Source: an uncultured Bacillota bacterium (lineage in GTDB: Bacteria; Bacillota; Clostridia; Tissierellales; Tissierellaceae). Taken from it: a DNA stretch of 64,000 bases. Both the position numbers and the translations under genes were made by a program. Numbering within the stretch: position 1 is the first letter of the stretch; each line of letters opens with the position of its first letter. The notes beneath the pieces were generated by a model that searched no databases, was not told where the DNA came from, and saw only the letters and a program-made list of their open reading frames with translations. Of the stretch, positions 15,915 to 63,532 are shown in pieces. The stretch lies in NCBI GenBank assembly GCA_937951995.1, contig CALGAG010000041.1, positions 4,401-68,400 on the forward strand, read 5' to 3'.

Positions 15915-17201
15915 CTATTTGGGTGCATAAGGAACCCTATACATGGATTGCCTGCTTCTTCTGGAAGACATCCTTCGCCGCTTTTTCTTTTGCAGTATCA
16001 ATATCCTCATGACAATATATGCTCCAAATACAAAGAGGTACCATTTGCTGATCAGCTTTCCAGGCATAACTGAAAGTGGGTCAACCTGGACTGAAACTGT
16101 GGAGATGATATTTCCTCCACCTATGACCTTTCCATCGATCAGGAACTCAACCTGACCCAGAATTTGACCCTTGTCAATGGGGGCTACAAGATTTTCATTA
16201 ATCTGGACCCTTTGCTCAATTAGATTCGAGTTTGCCTCCGAAACCGGATAAACAATATCCCTGTCTAAAATTCCAGCGATAAAGGGAGCCTCTCCATCTG
16301 CTATTGTGATATTATCAATAAACTGGTTTGCGCTGGCAACTATAGTATTGCTATAGTTCTCAAAACCGTAATCCAAAAGCTTCTGGCTATCTGAAAACAC
16401 CATGTTTCCATCTGCTTTAAGGACGGCCGCTATTAGGCGCTGGCCATTCTTTTCCCCATAGGATACCAGACAATTCATGGCCTGGGATGTATAGCCGGTC
16501 TTAACCCCTGAAGCGGCATCATAGCGTGCTGCCACAAGCTCACCATTCTTATCTATCAGCTCTGAGCTAAAAAGCAGCTTGTTGGTGGTCTTGAAATATC
16601 TGGTTTCTGTCTTGATATTTGTTGGGGGTATTTCATATGTAACCTTATCCACTATGCTCCTTATTGTTTCATTGCTCATGGCATAACGTCCAATTAGGGC
16701 CAGGTCATATGCTGAGGATACATGCCTATCATCATGGAGACCGTTGGGGTTCACAAAATTAGTATCCAGAGCTCCCAGCTCACTGGCTTTTTGATTCATC
16801 ATGGATATGAAATTCTCAATTGAACCCCCAACATGCTTGGCAATTGCCAGTGCTGCATCATTTGCTGAAGGCAGGAGCAGGGCGTGAAGCATCTGTTCCA
16901 TGGTAAGGACCTCGCCTGGTTCAAGGGCGATATGGCTACCCTTTGTGAGACTAACAACTTCCTGGTCAACTGTAACCAGCTCATTTAGGGAAGAGTGTTC
17001 CACTGCCAGTATTGCTGTCATCATTTTTGTGGTGCTTGCAGGATACAGCTTAAGATGACTGTTTTTCTGAAAGAGAATTTCTCCCGAATCGTAATCGATC
17101 AGAATAGCACCTTCTCCGTTTATATTTAGAGTTTCAGCGTAAACTCCCGAGCCTGAAACAAGAATTAAAACCAAACATATTAACACCAATGACTTTTTCA
17201 A
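15915..17201 (-). CDS. D-alanyl-D-alanine carboxypeptidase (peptidase S11)
   Basis: Signal peptide, PASTTK (SxxK), SANDA (SxN), VKTGYT (KTG), PBP5_C domain, C-terminal TM. Confidence 0.93.
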   Translation of the reverse strand: MKKSLVLICLVLILVSGSGVYAETLNINGEGAILIDYDSGEILFQKNSHLKLYPASTTKMMTAILAVEHSSLNELVTVDQEVVSLTKGSHIALEPGEVLTMEQMLHALLLPSANDAALAIAKHVGGSIENFISMMNQKASELGALDTNFVNPNGLHDDRHVSSAYDLALIGRYAMSNETIRSIVDKVTYEIPPTNIKTETRYFKTTNKLLFSSELIDKNGELVAARYDAASGVKTGYTSQAMNCLVSYGEKNGQRLIAAVLKADGNMVFSDSQKLLDYGFENYSNTIVASANQFIDNITIADGEAPFIAGILDRDIVYPVSEANSNLIEQRVQINENLVAPIDKGQILGQVEFLIDGKVIGGGNIISTVSVQVDPLSVMPGKLISKWYLFVFGAYIVMRILILQKKKRRRMSSRRSRQSMYRVPYAPK

Positions 17202-17296
17202 ATTAAACCACCTCGTCTGTATTTTGCAGTACCTGCTGACTATATTGATTATACCAGAAAAAGATGTATAATTTAACCTCTAGAATCTCAAAAAAA

Positions 17297-17325
17297 GAAG
17301 GAATTTCATAAAATAGGTCGAATAT
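17297..17325 (+). promoter_or_regulatory. Sigma-H-like promoter upstream of comEA
   Basis: GAAGGAATT-N11-GTCGAATAT matches RNAGGAWWW-N11/12-RNNGAATWW. Confidence 0.65.
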
Positions 17326-17363
17326 AATAATATACTATACTATTTTCTGGAGGTAATGGACAT

Positions 17364-17966
17364 ATGGAATTCTTTACAAAAAGGGAACAAATAGCTATAC
17401 TTAGTGTAGTCGTCCTAATCCTAGGTATATTCGGAGCCAGGATTATTTTTGAGGACAGAGAACCTGAAACGACCCATGTGAGAAGCCTTCCTCAGGTTGA
17501 GGAGTTGGAGGATGAGACAGGCAGTGAGGATATCAGACCAAGTGTAATAATGGTACATATCAGCGGTCAGGTATACCATCCCGGTATATACCAGCTCCTC
17601 CAGGGAGATAGGGTGGTGGATGTAGTTGACCTGGCTGGAGGTTTGACCAAACAGGCAGATTTGGATAGAATAAACTTAGCGAAAAAACTTGTTGATGAAG
17701 ACAAGATCTACATACCATCACTTGATGAGGCGGGAGCCATTGAGGCTGAAGCAGTCATGTCAACAGGAGGCAAGGGCCTTTTGAACATCAACAGCTGCAC
17801 ACAGAAGGAACTTGAGAGCCTGCCTGGCATAGGCGAGGTTATAGCAGCCAGGGTGGTGGAATACAGACAGGACAACAGGTTCAAGAATCCTGAGGATATC
17901 ATGAAGGTATCCGGCATAGGTGATGCAAAATATGAGCAGATCAAGGACCTGATAACTGTTAACTGA
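17364..17966 (+). CDS. comEA: Competence DNA-binding protein ComEA
   Basis: N-terminal TM, VHISGQV..PGIY SLBB domain, NINS...LESLPGIGEVIA HhH domain. Confidence 0.93.
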   Translation: MEFFTKREQIAILSVVVLILGIFGARIIFEDREPETTHVRSLPQVEELEDETGSEDIRPSVIMVHISGQVYHPGIYQLLQGDRVVDVVDLAGGLTKQADLDRINLAKKLVDEDKIYIPSLDEAGAIEAEAVMSTGGKGLLNINSCTQKELESLPGIGEVIAARVVEYRQDNRFKNPEDIMKVSGIGDAKYEQIKDLITVN

Positions 17967-17980
17967 TAGGAGGAATTAAA

Positions 17981-19015
17981 TTGTTGGATAGATTGACCCA
18001 AATGACAAAAAGCTCTGGATGAGCGGCAAAAATAGGACCGGATGTCCTGGCACAGGTTCTGTGCCATTTACCAAAGACCAATGACAGTAATTTATTGGTT
18101 GGAATCGAATCATCTGATGATGCTGCAGTGTATAGGATAAATGATGATTTGGCAATAATTCAGACATTGGACTTTTTCACCCCAGTGGTGGATGATCCCT
18201 ACACCTTTGGCCAGATTGCAGCGGCCAACTCCCTTAGCGACATATACGCTATGGGTGGGGACCCAAAGCTGGCCCTTAATATCGTTTGTTTCCCTGATTG
18301 CCTGGATCCTGAAATCCTGGCCCAAATAATGAAGGGAGGCCATGACAAGGTCACTGAAGCCGGTGCCATACTGGTGGGAGGCCACAGTGTTTCCGATGAT
18401 GAGCCTAAGTATGGACTCTCGGTGACAGGCTTTGTACATCCCGACAAGGTTCAGGCAAACAACACAGCAAAACCTGGAGATGTGCTGGTACTGACCAAGC
18501 CTCTGGGCATAGGAATCATCACAACTGCAATAAAGGGAGACCTTGCCAGTGGTGATGCCAGAGACAAGGCCATCCTTTCAATGGCCACATTGAACATCCA
18601 CGGGAAAGAAGCCATAGATGCCACAGAAGAAGTTCACTCCGTAACAGATATCACAGGCTTTGGATTGTTGGGGCACAGCCTTGAAATGGCTGAAGGTAGT
18701 GGAGTCACAATCAAAATATTCAGCAGCAGGGTGCCCTACATCCAGGAAGCCAAGGAATACTCGCAGATGGGCCTGATTCCTGAAGGAGCCTACAACAACA
18801 GAAATTTCATAGGAGACAAGGTCAAAATCCATGAGTCGGTACCTGAATACCTGAAGGATATCCTATTCGACCCTCAAACATCAGGGGGGCTTTTGATTTC
18901 AGTCGCAAGGGAAAGTGTGGATAACCTTTTGGAGAAGCTTTCCAAATCACCAGTGGAGTTTGGAGTTGTTGGAGAAGTAATATCAAAAGATGAAAAACAG
19001 TTGATCGTAGAATAA
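17981..19015 (+). CDS. selD: Selenide, water dikinase SelD, selenocysteine-containing (UGA at 18020-18022)
   Basis: RBS AGGAGG + TTG 17981 in frame with ORF 18095; [10 protein letters not shown]-[UGA]-AAKIGP; [35 protein letters not shown]. Confidence 0.95.
18034..18066 (+). promoter_or_regulatory. Candidate bacterial SECIS hairpin(s) in selD
   Basis: AGGAC-CGGAT-GTCCT begins 11 nt after UGA; TGGCACAG-GTT-CTGTGCCA follows. Confidence 0.55.
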
Positions 19016-19029
19016 AGGATTGGTGGAAA

Positions 19030-20454
19030 ATGAGCGATGTTAATCTATTTAAAATGATTCCCAAGGTGGATGAGCTCCTGGAGAATGAGCTAATAAAAAA
19101 CCTGGACAAAAAGGTACCAAGAAAGACCATGGTTGATTCAATTCGACTTGCCACGGAGAATGTCAGAACTGCCATAAAGGATGGAAGGGAGCCTGAGGAA
19201 ATTAAGGTCATGGTCAGGAGCCTGGCGGACACCATTGTCAAGATGGCGATCAAGAAGAATTCATTTCAATTGAGACCTGTCATAAATGCAACAGGAGTGG
19301 TAATTCACACAAACCTTGGAAGGTCACCGGTTAGCCCTGAAATACTTGACCATATAAAGGATGTATCAGTGGGCTATTCAAATCTTGAATATGACCTGGA
19401 AAAGGGAAGTAGGGGATCACGCTACTCTCATTTGGAGGATCTTGTGGCGGACATAACAGGTGCTGAGTCGGCCATGGTTGTAAACAACAATGCTGCAGCG
19501 GTGCTTCTTGTTTTAAGTACTCTGGCGTCGGGAAGGGAAGTAATTGTATCAAGAGGGGAACTGATCGAAATAGGTGGGGCATTCAGAATCCCGGATGTAA
19601 TGTCTCAAAGTGGTGCTAAGCTTGTGGAGGTTGGAACCACAAACAAGACCCACCTGAGGGATTATGAAGGTGCGATCTCCGAGGACACTGGTGCAATAAT
19701 GAAGGTCCATACCTCCAACTATAGAATAATGGGGTTCACTTCAGCTGTGGAGGCCTCTGACCTTAAGGATGTTTCAGAAAGGCACAGGATACCACTTATT
19801 GAGGATTTGGGCAGCGGTGTACTCATTGACCTTTCAAAATATGGAATAACATATGAGCCAACTGTCATGGATAGCCTGAAGAGCGGGGTGGATATTGTTA
19901 CCTTTAGCGGAGACAAGCTCCTGGGAGGACCACAGGCAGGCATAATTGTAGGCAAGAAGGAATATATCGATATGATGAAGAAGAATCCGCTCACAAGGGC
20001 CTTCAGGGTGGACAAGTTTACAATATCAGCCCTTGAAGCAACCTTTAGGTATTATTTGGACATGGATGCTGCCCCATCCCAGATTCCAACCCTGAGAATG
20101 TTAACCTATAAAATGGAAGTTCTTCAGGAAAAGGCTGAGAAGCTCATGGAAAAACTGGTTGGAGACCAGGTTCAGACAAAAGTGGGCTTGTCCATACAGG
20201 ATGAGTATTCAGAGGTTGGGGGAGGATCATTACCCATGGAAAAGCTTCCAACAAAATGCGTAGTCGTTGAGCTTGGGGAAGGAAGCACAGCAAGGTTTGA
20301 GGACCTTTTAAGAACCAACACCATTCCGGTCATAGCAAGAATCCATAGGGATAAGGTCTATCTTGATGTGAGAACCATAGATGATTCTGAAATGGAAATA
20401 GTGTCCAAAGCCGTCCGGAGGGCAGTTGACGGACTGGAGGAGTGTATAGAATGA
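19030..20454 (+). CDS. selA: L-seryl-tRNA(Sec) selenium transferase
   Basis: VINATGVVIHTNLGRS, VNNNAAA, SRGELIEIGG, FSGDKLLGGPQAG (PLP Lys). Confidence 0.98.
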   Translation: MSDVNLFKMIPKVDELLENELIKNLDKKVPRKTMVDSIRLATENVRTAIKDGREPEEIKVMVRSLADTIVKMAIKKNSFQLRPVINATGVVIHTNLGRSPVSPEILDHIKDVSVGYSNLEYDLEKGSRGSRYSHLEDLVADITGAESAMVVNNNAAAVLLVLSTLASGREVIVSRGELIEIGGAFRIPDVMSQSGAKLVEVGTTNKTHLRDYEGAISEDTGAIMKVHTSNYRIMGFTSAVEASDLKDVSERHRIPLIEDLGSGVLIDLSKYGITYEPTVMDSLKSGVDIVTFSGDKLLGGPQAGIIVGKKEYIDMMKKNPLTRAFRVDKFTISALEATFRYYLDMDAAPSQIPTLRMLTYKMEVLQEKAEKLMEKLVGDQVQTKVGLSIQDEYSEVGGGSLPMEKLPTKCVVVELGEGSTARFEDLLRTNTIPVIARIHRDKVYLDVRTIDDSEMEIVSKAVRRAVDGLEECIE

Positions 20455-22361
20455 AGCATTTGATTATTGGAACAGCCGGTCACATAGACCATGGAAAGAC
20501 GACCCTTATCAAGGCCTTGACAGGAAGGGAAACCGATAGGTTAAAGGAGGAGAAGGACAGGGGGATATCCATTGAACTTGGCTTCACATACTTCGATCTT
20601 CCCAACGGTCAGAGAGCGGGTATAATTGATGTGCCAGGACATGAAAAGTTCATAAGGAATATGCTGGCAGGTGTTGTTGGGATAGATATTGTTATGCTGG
20701 TCGTGGCAGCTGATGAGGGAATAATGCCGCAAACCGCCGAGCATCTTGCCATACTTGACATGGCTGGTGTGAAGAAGGGATTTGTTGTAATAACAAAGGC
20801 AGACATGGTGGAGGAAGAGTGGATCGATCTGGTAAAGGAGGAGGTTTGGGAAGCGGTAGAGGGAACTTTTCTCGAAGGAAGCCAGATAATTCCAGTATCA
20901 TCAACAAAGAAGACAGGAATCGACAAGGTTATCAGTTTGATACAGGACATGGCTGGGGAACTTGAGGACAAGAATGTAAATGACATGCCCAGACTTCCTG
21001 TAGACAGGGTGTTTACAATTTCTGGATTTGGAACGGTTGTTACAGGTACCTTGCTTGCAGGAAAATTTTCCATTGGAGACGAGGTCGAGATTTACCCTTC
21101 TGGCATAAAATCGAGAATAAGGTCAATACAAGTTCATGACCAGGATTCCAAGGAGGCTTTTGGGGGTCAGAGGGTGGCTATGAATCTTGCCAATGTAAAG
21201 AAGGATGACATTGAAAGGGGTAATGTTGTGGCCCCAATAAATGCCATGGTCACCACCATGATGCTTGATGTAAAGATAAGGCTCCTTAAAGGTCTTGATA
21301 AGGTCATTGAAAACCGTACGCGACTTAAGCTCTACCTTGGGACCGAAGAGATCCTGTGCAGGATCGTACTCCTTGACAGGGAAACCCTTGAGCCTGGTGA
21401 GGAGGCATACGCCCAACTGAGGCTTGAATCCGAAACCGTAGCCAAAAGAGGAGACAGGTTTATATTGAGATTCTATTCTCCAATGTTCACAATCGGTGGA
21501 GGGGAAATACTTGAGCCTAATCCTGCCAAGAGAAAGCGATTTGATGAGGATGACATCCAGGAACTCATTATAAAGGATGAAGGGGACTTAAAGGACATAG
21601 TTGAACATATGATCATTGACAAGGCCAAGCTTTACCTATCTGTCAAGGAAATGGCCAGGGAAACGTCAATGCTGGAGGAAAACATAATCCAGGAAATAAG
21701 AAATCTTCAGGATGAAGGCAAGATAACCATATACCAGCTGAGCAAGGACATATATCCAGTTCATTTGGACCATATCACCAGTTTGGTCCAATCCATGGAG
21801 AAGGTGCTGCAAGTGTTTCACAGCAAATACCCGCTGAGGATTGGAGCTTCAAAGGAGGAAATGAGAAGCAGATTCCTACAGAAGGCAAAGCCAAAGCTTG
21901 CAGAGAATATAATTGAAGACCTGATCCAGAAAGGACACTTCAAACAGGAGAAGGACCTGATTTCCCTTCAGGATCACAAGCCTCAATATTCAAGGGACCA
22001 GCTTGAGATAAAGGAGAGAATAATGGACCAATTCCGCAGGGACCCCTTTATGCCTCCAAAGAAAGAGGATTTGATAAAGTCTGAATTGGGTAAACACGAA
22101 GATATAGATGAGGTATTAATGGATATGCTCAACAGGCAGGACCTTGTCAGGGTAAGTGACGACCTCTTAATATTGCCTGAAAATCTTGAAAGGGCAAAGA
22201 ATGAGCTAGTCGGACACATCCAGAAGCATGGCGGAGTTTCAGTGGCTGAGTACAGGGATTTGTTGAATACAAATAGAAAAAACGCAATCGGTCTTCTTGA
22301 ATATTTTGACCAGATTAAAATCACTAAAAGAGATGGCGAGAAGAGATTACTTGTAAATTGA
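20451..22361 (+). CDS. selB: Selenocysteine-specific elongation factor SelB
   Basis: GTAGHIDHGKT, DVPGHE, TKAD; C-terminal winged-helix SRK-like NRKNAIGLLEYFD; ATGA overlap with selA. Confidence 0.98.
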   Translation: MKHLIIGTAGHIDHGKTTLIKALTGRETDRLKEEKDRGISIELGFTYFDLPNGQRAGIIDVPGHEKFIRNMLAGVVGIDIVMLVVAADEGIMPQTAEHLAILDMAGVKKGFVVITKADMVEEEWIDLVKEEVWEAVEGTFLEGSQIIPVSSTKKTGIDKVISLIQDMAGELEDKNVNDMPRLPVDRVFTISGFGTVVTGTLLAGKFSIGDEVEIYPSGIKSRIRSIQVHDQDSKEAFGGQRVAMNLANVKKDDIERGNVVAPINAMVTTMMLDVKIRLLKGLDKVIENRTRLKLYLGTEEILCRIVLLDRETLEPGEEAYAQLRLESETVAKRGDRFILRFYSPMFTIGGGEILEPNPAKRKRFDEDDIQELIIKDEGDLKDIVEHMIIDKAKLYLSVKEMARETSMLEENIIQEIRNLQDEGKITIYQLSKDIYPVHLDHITSLVQSMEKVLQVFHSKYPLRIGASKEEMRSRFLQKAKPKLAENIIEDLIQKGHFKQEKDLISLQDHKPQYSRDQLEIKERIMDQFRRDPFMPPKKEDLIKSELGKHEDIDEVLMDMLNRQDLVRVSDDLLILPENLERAKNELVGHIQKHGGVSVAEYRDLLNTNRKNAIGLLEYFDQIKITKRDGEKRLLVN

Positions 22362-22380
22362 CATTGAGGTGAGGGTAGGT

Positions 22381-23070
22381 ATGAGCGGTAGAATACTGAT
22401 TATAGACAACGACCGGTCATTTGTGAAGGGGCTTCGTTATAGCCTTGAGCAGGATGACTATCGCATAGACATACTTTCCGAGGGAAAGGATACCCTGGAC
22501 CACATAACTAGGAAAGAATACAACATGGTCCTGATTGAGACCGAGCTGCCTGATATTAATGGACTGACATTATGCCAGGATATCCGCAACATTTCATCAG
22601 TGCCAATAATCTTTATAACCTCGGTGGATGAGGATATCAAGAAAATTCTCGCCCTGGAGTATGGGGCTGATGACTACCTGGTAAAGCCATTTAACATTCT
22701 GGAGTTAAAGGCCAGGATCAAGGCCGTACTTCGAAGGATAAACCGCAAGGTTTCAGACAATGACAGTAATGTTGTTGAGATCAAGGACCTAAGGATCAAT
22801 TCAGTGGGCAGAAAAGTGACCAGAAGCGACAAGAATATTTCCCTGACAGGTAAGGAATTTGACCTTTTATATGTGCTTGCATCCAATCCAGGCAAGGTGT
22901 TCACAAGGGAGGAACTGCTGGAGAAGGTATGGGGATATGCATATTATGGGGATCTAAGGACTGTGGATGTCCATATTCGTAGAATTCGGGAAAAGATTGA
23001 AAAAGACCCCAAGGCGGCGGAATATGTTCTAACCAAATGGGGTGTTGGATATTTTTTCAAGGAAAATTAG
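22381..23070 (+). CDS. OmpR/WalR-family response regulator with atypical receiver (Glu at phospho-acceptor site)
   Basis: REC domain + winged helix (RTVDVHIRRIREKIE, TKWGVGY); MVLIETELP where family has LLDxxLP; alternative GTG start 22369. Confidence 0.9.
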   Translation: MSGRILIIDNDRSFVKGLRYSLEQDDYRIDILSEGKDTLDHITRKEYNMVLIETELPDINGLTLCQDIRNISSVPIIFITSVDEDIKKILALEYGADDYLVKPFNILELKARIKAVLRRINRKVSDNDSNVVEIKDLRINSVGRKVTRSDKNISLTGKEFDLLYVLASNPGKVFTREELLEKVWGYAYYGDLRTVDVHIRRIREKIEKDPKAAEYVLTKWGVGYFFKEN

Positions 23071-23072
23071 GA

Positions 23073-23101
23073 TTGAAATCCATTAGGATTTATTGTATAA
23101 T
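23073..23101 (+). promoter_or_regulatory. Sigma-A promoter of selC
   Basis: TTGAAA-N17-TATAAT, 17 nt upstream of the tRNA. Confidence 0.8.
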
Positions 23102-23118
23102 GGCTCTTGTAGCCAAAT

Positions 23119-23215
23119 GGGGGTAGAGGAGTCCTGGTGGGCTCTCTGGTCTTCAAAACCAGCGCGGGGCGTTAGGAGCGTCCTGGGTGAGTTCGATTCT
23201 CACATACTCCCGCCA
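23119..23215 (+). tRNA. selC: tRNA-Sec (anticodon UCA)
   Basis: 6 bp D stem GAGTCC/GGGCTC with 4 nt loop, CTGGT-CTTCAAA-ACCAG anticodon arm, long variable arm, GTGAG-TTCGATT-CTCAC T arm, encoded GCCA. Confidence 0.97.
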
Positions 23216-23229
23216 AATTGAACCAAAGC

Positions 23230-23257
23230 AAAAGCACCTTATTAGGGTGCTTTTTTT
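23230..23257. terminator. Terminator between selC and the convergent AlaX-like gene
   Basis: AAAAGCACC...GGTGCTTTTTTT. Confidence 0.8.
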
Positions 23258-23282
23258 AAATGCCACTTTTATTGTCTCCAGG

Positions 23283-24482
23283 CTAGAGTCCCTGTGTGAT
23301 AATTTCCCTTGCCCTTTGAAGCAGTGAATCCAGGTTGACTGTAGGTACGGAGCCTTGTACAGTGTTTGTGTTTCCCCCTCCCTTTAGCTTGAACTCTCCA
23401 GCTAGTTGTTTATAGACATTACCCAGATCAATGTTGATGTCTTTTGATTTGCTTATTATGAACTGCCCCAGACCATCATTGGATATTCCATAAATCTGTA
23501 CAACCCTTTCATAATTGTTGGATATGTGGCTTCCCAGATGGCTTAGAGCCTTGAAATCAAAGTTGTCATACATCTTGCTTATCAGGCTCATATCTCCAAT
23601 CTTTTCTGAACCCTCCACGAGTAAAGCGCTTCTGGCTGAAATCAACTCTTCTCTTCCAGACCTGACCTCCTTCTCAAGGTTGATTTTGTCCATTAAAATC
23701 TTTTCAACCTTTGCTTCAATGTTATCATCGGAAGAGGACAGGAGGTTTGATATTGATCGCACAGACTTGAACTTGGAGGAATAATCCACAAATGCCCTTT
23801 GTCCAGTCAAAAACTGAATCCTGAGATTGCCTTTATAGTGGTCCCACTTTGTTATTTTCAAGAGTCCAAGCTCACCAGTATGGTTTACATGTGTACCACC
23901 ACATGGAGAGTAATCAAAACCGTCTATCTCAACCATCCTAATATTAGTATCCACTGAGGGTGACTTTCTTACAGGTAGTAGCCTGAGTTTTTCTTGATTT
24001 ACAATGTATGTCTTTACCTTGAAGTTTGATTGTATAATCCTGTTGCACAGGGCCTCAACATTACTCGCTTCTTCATGGTCCATATCCGTCAGGGTTACAT
24101 CGATTGAGGAGTAGTCCTTTCCCAAATGAAAGCTTATGGTTTCTCCTCCTAAAAGATTGTAAAGGACACCTGATAGAAGGTGTTGGCCGGTATGCTGCTG
24201 CATCATGTCGAATCTGTGGTCCGATTGGATGGATAACTTGACCTTAGGCCCTGTTACCTGGGATTCGAGTATGTGAGTCAGGCCATCTTCATGCTCGATG
24301 GTCTCAATTACCCTTTCCCCGTTTATGGTCCCAACATCCCCAGGTTGACCCCCTGACATATCAGGATAGAATATTGTCCTGTCCAGTCTTACGTGGTATT
24401 TTCCTTCCTTCTTTTCCTTCTTGATAATGGAAGCCTCAGTTTCATGCAAATAAGGATTCTCCCAATAGAGCTTTCTTGTCAT
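23283..24482 (-). CDS. Alanyl-tRNA editing protein (AlaX-like) with C-terminal DHHA1/C-Ala domain
   Basis: LYWENPY, TIFYPDMSGGQPGD, QHTGQH (HxxxH), CGGTH, C-terminal KGGGN. Confidence 0.88.
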   Translation of the reverse strand: MTRKLYWENPYLHETEASIIKKEKKEGKYHVRLDRTIFYPDMSGGQPGDVGTINGERVIETIEHEDGLTHILESQVTGPKVKLSIQSDHRFDMMQQHTGQHLLSGVLYNLLGGETISFHLGKDYSSIDVTLTDMDHEEASNVEALCNRIIQSNFKVKTYIVNQEKLRLLPVRKSPSVDTNIRMVEIDGFDYSPCGGTHVNHTGELGLLKITKWDHYKGNLRIQFLTGQRAFVDYSSKFKSVRSISNLLSSSDDNIEAKVEKILMDKINLEKEVRSGREELISARSALLVEGSEKIGDMSLISKMYDNFDFKALSHLGSHISNNYERVVQIYGISNDGLGQFIISKSKDINIDLGNVYKQLAGEFKLKGGGNTNTVQGSVPTVNLDSLLQRAREIITQGL

Positions 24483-63479: not shown

Positions 63480-63532
63480 TGTAACCGTTTTGTAAATAAT
63501 TCATTGAAAAAGGACCTTCCTTGTATTATAAT
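63480..63532 (+). promoter_or_regulatory. WalR-type direct repeat plus sigma-A promoter
   Basis: TGTAAC-N5-TGTAAA (63480-63496), then TTGAAA-N17-TATAAT (63504-63532). Confidence 0.7.

Follow-up and report, generated by a model that had tools for sequence, protein, structure and literature searches.

An orphan OmpR-type regulator with glutamate at the phospho-acceptor position and its kinase-linked relatives at the clostridial comEA locus

The comEA-selDAB-regulator locus

The window analysed here, a stretch of 64,000 nucleotides from an uncultured member of the Tissierellaceae, carries comEA, the selenocysteine genes selD, selA and selB, a response regulator gene and the tRNA-Sec gene selC in series on the forward strand (Table 1). 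From comEA to the regulator, consecutive genes are separated by 15 nt (comEA-selD), 14 nt, an overlap and 19 nt (selB-regulator, 22362-22380), and within 17100-23400 there is a single strong terminator, the hairpin that selC shares with the convergent alaX-like gene. Because the gaps are tight and no strong terminator precedes the end of selC, the regulator is likely to be co-transcribed with comEA-selDAB. A run annotated as transcriptomic (X1) gave continuous coverage over the locus but also across the terminator and the convergent gene, and it therefore carries no evidence on co-transcription. As the sequence-only reading of this DNA had described, the regulator lies 19 bp after selB and directly before the selC promoter.

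Table 1 Coordinates of the features discussed, as positions in the window
Feature	Position	Strand	Basis or detail
Sigma-H-type promoter motif (AGGAATTT-N-GTCGAAT) before comEA; likely operon promoter, regulator included	17299..17323	+	Consensus match
comEA, first gene of the operon	17364..17966	+	Pfam HHH_3 and SLBB; NCBIfam comE/ComEA
selD; TTG start at 17982, in-frame TGA (Sec) at 18021-18023	17982..19015	+	TIGR00476, 371 bits
selA	19030..20454	+	TIGR00474, 619 bits
selB	20442..22361	+	TIGR00475, 381.6 bits
OmpR/PhoB-type response regulator, pseudo-receiver plus WalR-like winged-helix domain	22381..23070	+	Pocket D9-N10-D11, E53, T80, Y99, K102
N10 codon AAC, DD2 (Mg-binding Asp) position	22408..22410	+	D in 100% of orthologues with an adjacent kinase
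E53 codon GAG, phospho-acceptor position	22537..22539	+	Codon read; alignments to known regulators
selC promoter, sigma-70-type TTGAAA-17-TATAAT, 2 nt past the regulator stop codon	23073..23101	+	11/12 matches
tRNA-Sec (selC), anticodon TCA	23119..23215	+	ARAGORN
Hairpin terminator common to selC (+) and the convergent alaX-like gene (23283-24482, -)	23230..23254	.	Terminator search

Upstream of comEA, at a distance of about 40 nt in the window, lies a sigma-H-type motif, and the pattern AGGAWWW-N11-12-RNNGAAT was found 5' of comEA in 18 of 53 loci, compared with 0.1 expected from shuffled sequences. The selB-regulator gap is 90-400 nt long in relatives that retain an adjacent kinase and 19-25 nt in the window's lineage. 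A sigma-H-type motif also occurs within this gap in 9 of 52 loci (0.2 expected), which argues that the regulator and kinase genes form a transcription unit of their own in the kinase-retaining relatives; the motif is found 5' of the regulator in L037, L043, L044, L047, L078, L084 and L088. This distribution suggests one post-exponential sigma factor common to comEA, the sel genes and the two-component genes, and from the consensus match we infer that the operon depends on sigma-H. By eye, the selB-regulator gaps of kinase-retaining loci shared no direct repeat, only the sigma-H-type motif. A conserved ATTATACCAGAAAAA block 5' of comEA was considered as a regulator site and rejected, being the reverse complement of the extended -10 element (TGGTATAAT) of the divergent dac gene.

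Several irregularities were noted along the locus. Translated with TGA as selenocysteine, selD reads ...KSSGUAAKIGP...; SelD is itself a selenoprotein (SSG-U-AAK), and the mechanical open reading frame call, which begins at 18095, truncates the gene by leaving out region 17982-18094. An antisense sigma-70-like sequence, TTCACA-17-TATAAT (11/12 matches; 22399-22427, minus strand), lies inside the 5' end of the regulator gene and is probably a chance occurrence in AT-rich DNA. At one relative's locus (L034, G019:C15) the regulator directly follows selA, with a partial selB on another contig (G019:C48:4394-5587), through either rearrangement or misassembly. In a Gudongella sp. MAG (L002, L063), the match to the alaX-like gene beside selC is split into residues 1-218 and 222-397, with an offset of a few bases between them, which suggests a frameshift or a sequencing error.

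Receiver pocket, fold and conservation of the regulator

The regulator is a protein of 229 amino acids (its translation contains EYNMVLIETELPDING; stop codon at 23068-23070) with an N-terminal receiver domain (Response_reg, PF00072, residues 5-114, E 6.9e-25) and a C-terminal winged-helix domain (Trans_reg_C, PF00486, residues 151-226, E 2.3e-30), the architecture of the OmpR/PhoB family. NMVLIETELPD is the sequence of its beta3 strand; aligned with MtrA, RegX3 and KdpE by phmmer, the glutamate at residue 53 stands opposite the acceptor aspartate of 'LVLLDLMLP'. The acidic motif after beta1 is changed as well: D9-N10-D11 (GAC AAC GAC, 22405-22413) occupies the place where kinase-bearing orthologues read D-D-E, while T80 (codon 22618-22620) and K102 (codon 22684-22686) are retained. 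The sequence-only reading had proposed all three of these points, namely a GAG codon at the acceptor site, an eroded acidic pocket and a preserved threonine and lysine, and each was confirmed by codon or alignment.

Set against a canonical receiver, the protein therefore has no aspartate at the end of beta3, where 55 of 55 orthologues with a kinase have one, and does not have the acidic Mg2+-binding pair DD1 and DD2 (D9-N10), yet it keeps the threonine or serine of beta4, the tyrosine or phenylalanine of beta5 and the lysine of the beta5-alpha5 loop. A REC fold without a phosphorylatable aspartate corresponds to an aspartate-less or pseudo-receiver as defined previously (PMC4395418, PMC12632262). 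The spread of these substitutions was followed by alignment, in which position 53 was glutamate in 100 and aspartate in 20 of the 120 closest database homologues, with no aspartate there in the window's own protein. Nearly every member of the family has a non-acidic DD2 (N, S or T), while T80, Y99 and K102 occur in 116, 121 and 116 of 121 sequences, respectively.

We weighed whether the unusual pocket could be a sequencing or assembly error at codon 53, or whether the gene is a decaying relic left behind by kinase loss. The codon was identical in contigs from four independent runs (compost, manure, landfill and wastewater), which differed within the gene at only two synonymous sites and one linker residue, and relatives encode E53 by either GAG or GAA; E53 is thus not a sequencing error, and the GAT or GAC that would have undone the sequence-only reading was seen in none of these contigs. 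Both domains are under strong purifying selection, with omega of ~0.04 in the receiver and ~0.02 in the DNA-binding domain, as estimated from the only 5 usable pairs, synonymous sites being saturated in most pairs. The reading frame is intact in every relative, and conservation at the same loci is higher for the regulator than for SelB or AlaX (in L007, 82% against 60% and 53%). Some kinase-less orthologues do sit on very long branches with odd pockets, among them L059 (39% identity), L053 (Ser) and L085 (Gly), as decay would produce. For the window's gene, the omega values and the codon identity across four metagenomes rule out a relic or an artefact, and the prevalence of E53 among database homologues, its synonymous codon variation and a complete, confident structural model also speak against this explanation, which we consider extremely improbable.

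The AF2 model of the regulator (pLDDT 86.4) comprises a complete (beta-alpha)5 receiver and a winged helix-turn-helix domain and contains no ligand-binding insertion; its closest solved folds in Foldseek were MtrA, PrrA, KdpE and DrrB. The alpha4-beta5-alpha5 segment (ILALEYGADDYLVKPFNILELKARIKA) is almost invariant in the family, with column conservation of 0.88-0.90. The DNA-binding domain of the same model matches WalR domains in superposition at 0.7-0.9 A and is 48-49% identical to them, and the recognition helix is almost identical (RTVDVHIRRIREKIE in the window's regulator, RTVDVTIRRLREKIE in WalR).

WalR/YycF (NF040534) was also the best-scoring curated family. However, the score of 223.6 bits falls below the equivalog cut-off of 340, contig C33 of the genome encodes another regulator that is WalR-like (327.5 bits) and has a 608-aa kinase as its partner, and the ancestral partner kinase of the window's regulator is about 470 aa long and has no cytoplasmic PAS domain. 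On the score and the separate pair on C33, we rejected the assignment of the regulator as the WalR/YycF equivalog. Scanning the window for WalR boxes (TGTWAH-N5-TGTWAH, at most one mismatch) returned 11 matches against 9.7 expected, none of them at the sel or selC promoters, so that a WalR-like operator at these promoters is without support. The only perfect box in the window, TGTAACCGTTTTGTAAA at 63480-63496 (+), could be a site for the WalR-like regulator of contig C33.

Kinase-linked orthologues and the neighbouring selenium genes

The regulator has a single-copy orthologue in 56 of 61 relatives from 20 families of the order, and its next-best paralogue in its own genome is only 41% identical. 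Synteny across 142 loci gave the ancestral arrangement comEA-[selD-selA-selB]-RR-HK-GerMN lipoprotein-...-[selC]-...-comEC, where RR is the regulator and HK a histidine kinase of about 470 aa with a transmembrane segment, an extracytoplasmic domain, a second transmembrane segment, HAMP, HisKA and HATPase domains. In kinase-retaining lineages, the kinase gene is always followed by a lipoprotein gene whose product carries the GerMN domain ('Germane', PF10646) once or twice (for example L035:6135-6992, L078:8122-8982, L117:8120-9100 and L136:8176-9168). RR-HK-GerMN thus appears to form a conserved module of three genes, which lies between comEA and comEC and is missing from the window. The regulator itself extends further: one orthologue was found in each of 41 Lachnospiraceae genomes drawn evenly across the family, and 30 of 30 fetched loci showed comEA-RR-(HK) with a canonical pocket, a kinase being detected in 29. 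The orthologous family has no NCBIfam equivalog, and a literature search for a sel-linked or comEA-linked two-component system returned nothing specific.

At the window's own locus, tRNA-Sec and alaX come after the regulator where the kinase would stand, and the gene is an orphan in that no cognate kinase gene lies in the operon or nearby in this 95%-complete genome. In agreement with the sequence-only reading, which had reported no histidine kinase in the window, HATPase_c had no match on the whole 80-kb contig that carries it. A search of the whole genome for the ancestral kinase gave no orthologue; the matches were confined to the kinase core and belonged to other kinases. The genome is a MAG of 267 contigs, which leaves room for an unlinked partner kinase; even then, with glutamate as residue 53, the regulator would offer no aspartate to phosphorylate.

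Pocket composition followed the presence of the kinase. The pocket was canonical (DDE/D/T/K) in 55 of 55 orthologues with an adjacent kinase. Canonical orthologues that come with a kinase include those of Thermohalobacter berrensis and Anaeromonas gelatinilytica (loci L084, L080). Of 63 kinase-less orthologues, 49 were non-canonical, having lost the acidic residue of DD2, replaced the acceptor by E, N, S or G, or both. Parsimony on the maximum-likelihood tree required 2 losses of the kinase, 4 changes at DD2 and 8-9 at the acceptor (to E, N, S and G and back to D), every pocket change falling inside one kinase-less clade of 56 rows (SH-aLRT 96) that comprises the Tissierellaceae and neighbours, including L038 and the Schnuerera / [Clostridium] ultunense group (NRD...D). 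The loss of DD2 dates to the base of the clade and preceded Glu53, which had repeated origins and occasionally reverted to aspartate (L013). Among cultivable relatives, Soehngenia longivitae and Tissierella praeacuta have kinase-less orthologues of the E and D types. The second kinase-less clade, Sedimentibacter-like and of 15 rows, still has the canonical DDE/D/T/K pocket (kinase-less loci L093, L095, L096, L100, L103, L104, L107, L108, L110 and L123), where either the kinase was lost recently or it may have been relocated. The link between kinase loss and pocket decay consequently rests on one of only two independent losses, a number that gives no power to an independent-contrast test.

Relaxation within the 56-row clade was concentrated in part around the phosphorylation site. 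Among the positions that are 83-100% conserved in the presence of a kinase and relaxed in the kinase-less clade, several lie beside that site, namely 10 (DD2), 11, 55 (D+2), 60, 81 (T+1), 83 and 101 (K-1). Positions of this kind tune phosphotransfer chemistry (PMC12632262).

The position of the gene raises the possibility that selenium supply acts through the regulator, ancestrally through an RR-HK pair, on the sel operon, selC or selenoprotein genes, and the sequence-only reading had likewise tied it to selenium use or to selC transcription. In its favour, selB adjoins the regulator in 94 of 128 unique orthologues from the sampled Tissierellales and Peptostreptococcales, and the kinase-retaining lineages have selDAB on the 5' side and selC on the 3' side of RR-HK-GerMN, which places the module inside the sel cluster. 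For the window's lineage, the 19-nt gap to selB without a terminator implies co-transcription, and the two sel-less Tissierellaceae genomes that carry the regulator (L054, L056) sit on a very long branch (0.98). Against this, comEA-RR-HK occurs without sel genes in 30 of 30 sampled Lachnospiraceae loci, none of which has selB between comEA and the regulator, and also in Epulonipiscium, Merdimonas and other MAGs; the regulator is kept between comEA and comEC in Tissierellaceae without any selB (G017, G027); and a sel-positive relative, L060, has no regulator, its selB being followed directly by selC. As to whether orthologues are linked to sel genes at all, the outcome is thus divided between frequent adjacency to selB in the two sampled orders and its absence from every Lachnospiraceae locus examined. 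The separate sigma-H-type promoter in the selB-regulator gap of kinase-retaining relatives also argues against a shared selenium function, and the literature search found no such regulator.

Sequences around selC gave the same indication. The hexamers of the selC promoter are conserved in relatives, while the spacer between them is variable and, together with the window's ATTAGGATT repeat, is unconserved in the closest relatives. A candidate operator made of the ATTAGGATT-N7-ATTAGGATT repeat and a GGATT..AATCC palindrome (23066-23090) was absent from relatives of 92-97% identity and was dismissed as a chance occurrence. The regulator is therefore not confined to genomes with Sec-decoding genes, and the selC promoter showed no conserved footprint. 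Given the persistence of RR-HK without sel genes and the lack of a conserved selC operator, we rate a selenium-specific role as unlikely, and the claim that tied the regulator to selenium use or selC transcription was not upheld. Judged by gene order, the deeper and more general linkage of the regulator is to comEA and comEC, while its tie to the selenium genes looks mostly positional. Conserved adjacency of selB and the regulator should accordingly not be equated with a functional selenium link. A more specific form of the selenium idea is that RR-HK-GerMN senses selenium or the demand for selenocysteine and that its Glu53 descendant constitutively couples the Sec machinery to the sigma-H post-exponential programme; we hold this to be quite improbable, and if true, such a system would be the first of its type in bacteria to be dedicated to regulating selenocysteine decoding.

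Predicted activity and relation to known regulators

Orthology, kinase loss, pocket changes limited to one clade and retained selection together argue for a phosphorylation-independent orphan of the ChxR/CosR kind. We accordingly favour, as the probable explanation, a pseudo-receiver orphan that derives from a core clostridial two-component system and whose activity would be set by its own expression. The more general claim of the sequence-only reading, that the protein is a kinase-independent transcription factor, is very likely correct, as both the acceptor and the Mg-binding aspartate have been lost, the kinase is absent and the gene remains under purifying selection.

The sequence of events that we propose begins in the ancestor of the Tissierellaceae and their neighbours with loss of the kinase and lipoprotein genes, after which the residues of phosphoryl chemistry would have drifted, with DD2, D+2, T+1 and K-1 changing and the acceptor last. 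The residues of the conformational switch (T80, Y99 and K102), the WalR-like DNA-binding domain and the dimer face formed by alpha4-beta5-alpha5 have meanwhile been kept by strong purifying selection. The resulting protein is predicted to fold as a normal REC-wHTH regulator, to dimerise and to bind direct repeats without phosphorylation; conservation of the alpha4-beta5-alpha5 face and of the DNA-binding domain points to a constitutively dimeric, DNA-binding and active state. Glu53 may help to keep an active-like state as a partial phosphomimic that contacts T80 and K102. Aspartate and glutamate alternate within the kinase-less clade, with L013 having returned to aspartate, so selection for a phosphomimic need not be involved and the glutamate may be no more than tolerated.

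Under this scheme the activity of the regulator would follow its own abundance. In the window's lineage the promoter of its own would have been lost, and the regulator would be translated from a comEA-selD-selA-selB-RR transcript started at the sigma-H-type promoter, so that the signal input would have shifted from a membrane kinase to post-exponential transcription. The regulon is probably not selenium-specific but a legacy of the ancestral comE-locus system. Our guess is that the ancestral system served cell-envelope or post-exponential functions, judging by the sigma-H-type promoters, a DNA-binding domain like that of WalR and a GerMN lipoprotein as partner. Scans of the selC, comEA and selB-regulator regions and of WalR boxes in the window revealed no binding motif or target.

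An alternative is that the regulator is still controlled by modification, whether through cross-talk from an unlinked kinase, through another residue (for example by a Ser/Thr kinase) or through a ligand or redox switch as in RitR and JadR1, and many characterised atypical regulators do use alternative inputs (PMC12632262). The signal-transmitting residues T80, Y99 and K102 are retained, and the genome contains kinases without an obvious partner, such as those on C99 and C233. C65 is invariant in the family, but cysteine is common at this position in the alpha3 helices of canonical OmpR-family receivers. Phosphotransfer is further opposed by the missing acceptor aspartate, by a DD2 that is non-acidic in nearly all family members and by the relaxation of D+2, T+1 and K-1, positions at which it is tuned, and a ligand switch by the AF2 model, which has no ligand-binding insertion. 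On balance we think continued control by modification improbable, and return to the phosphorylation-independent orphan in the comparisons that follow.

ChxR of Chlamydia trachomatis is likewise an OmpR/PhoB-type orphan without a kinase and with a natural glutamate at the acceptor; it forms a dimer that is active without phosphorylation (PMC3960148, PMC4395418), and ChxR was still active after substitution of this glutamate (PMC4395418). ChxR and the window's regulator are not orthologues, and ChxR lacks part of the secondary structure of the pocket and has an unusual dimer interface, whereas for the window's regulator the prediction is a complete (beta-alpha)5 fold, with the alpha4-beta5-alpha5 face conserved. 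CosR of Campylobacter jejuni (also HP1043/HsrA of Helicobacter pylori), an OmpR-type orphan as well, repeats the evolutionary pattern: residue 51 is aspartate where the kinase CosS is encoded alongside and asparagine or serine in species that have lost CosS (PMC3938529). CosR belongs to a different phylum and family, however, and in the window's family the replacement is mostly glutamate, DD2 was lost first, and the series is much larger (~50 kinase-less against >80 kinase-linked) and includes reversions to aspartate. By analogy, ChxR would be the closest system in mechanism and CosR/CosS the closest in evolution.

Among aspartate-less receivers in general, glutamate is the commonest residue at the acceptor (26%) and asparagine is common at DD2; OmpR-type effectors make up their largest absolute number, and most characterised examples are orphans (PMC4395418, PMC12632262). 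The window's regulator fits this class in having its two most frequent substitutions, D to Glu at the acceptor and DD2 to Asn, in keeping DD1, T and K, and in being an orphan. It differs in belonging to a specific, undescribed orthologous family with a traceable kinase-linked ancestor. The suggestion that the locus holds an undescribed regulatory system therefore stands in part: no curated model or literature was found for it, while the Glu/Asn pseudo-receiver pattern had already been described. Both the orthologous family and its kinase-linked ancestor beside comEA appear to be uncharacterised.

A glutamate-for-aspartate OmpR-type orphan would be ordinary taken alone, and the value of this one lies in its context. 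The gene belongs to a near-universal clostridial comEA-RR-HK-GerMN system that has no curated family. The origin and continued activity of pseudo-receivers were called still unclear in a recent review (PMC12632262). The family offers a natural series, with more than 80 kinase-linked members that are all canonical and about 50 kinase-less members that show stepwise decay and changes among D, E, N, S and G, and this series could serve as a model of how pseudo-receivers arise and stay active.
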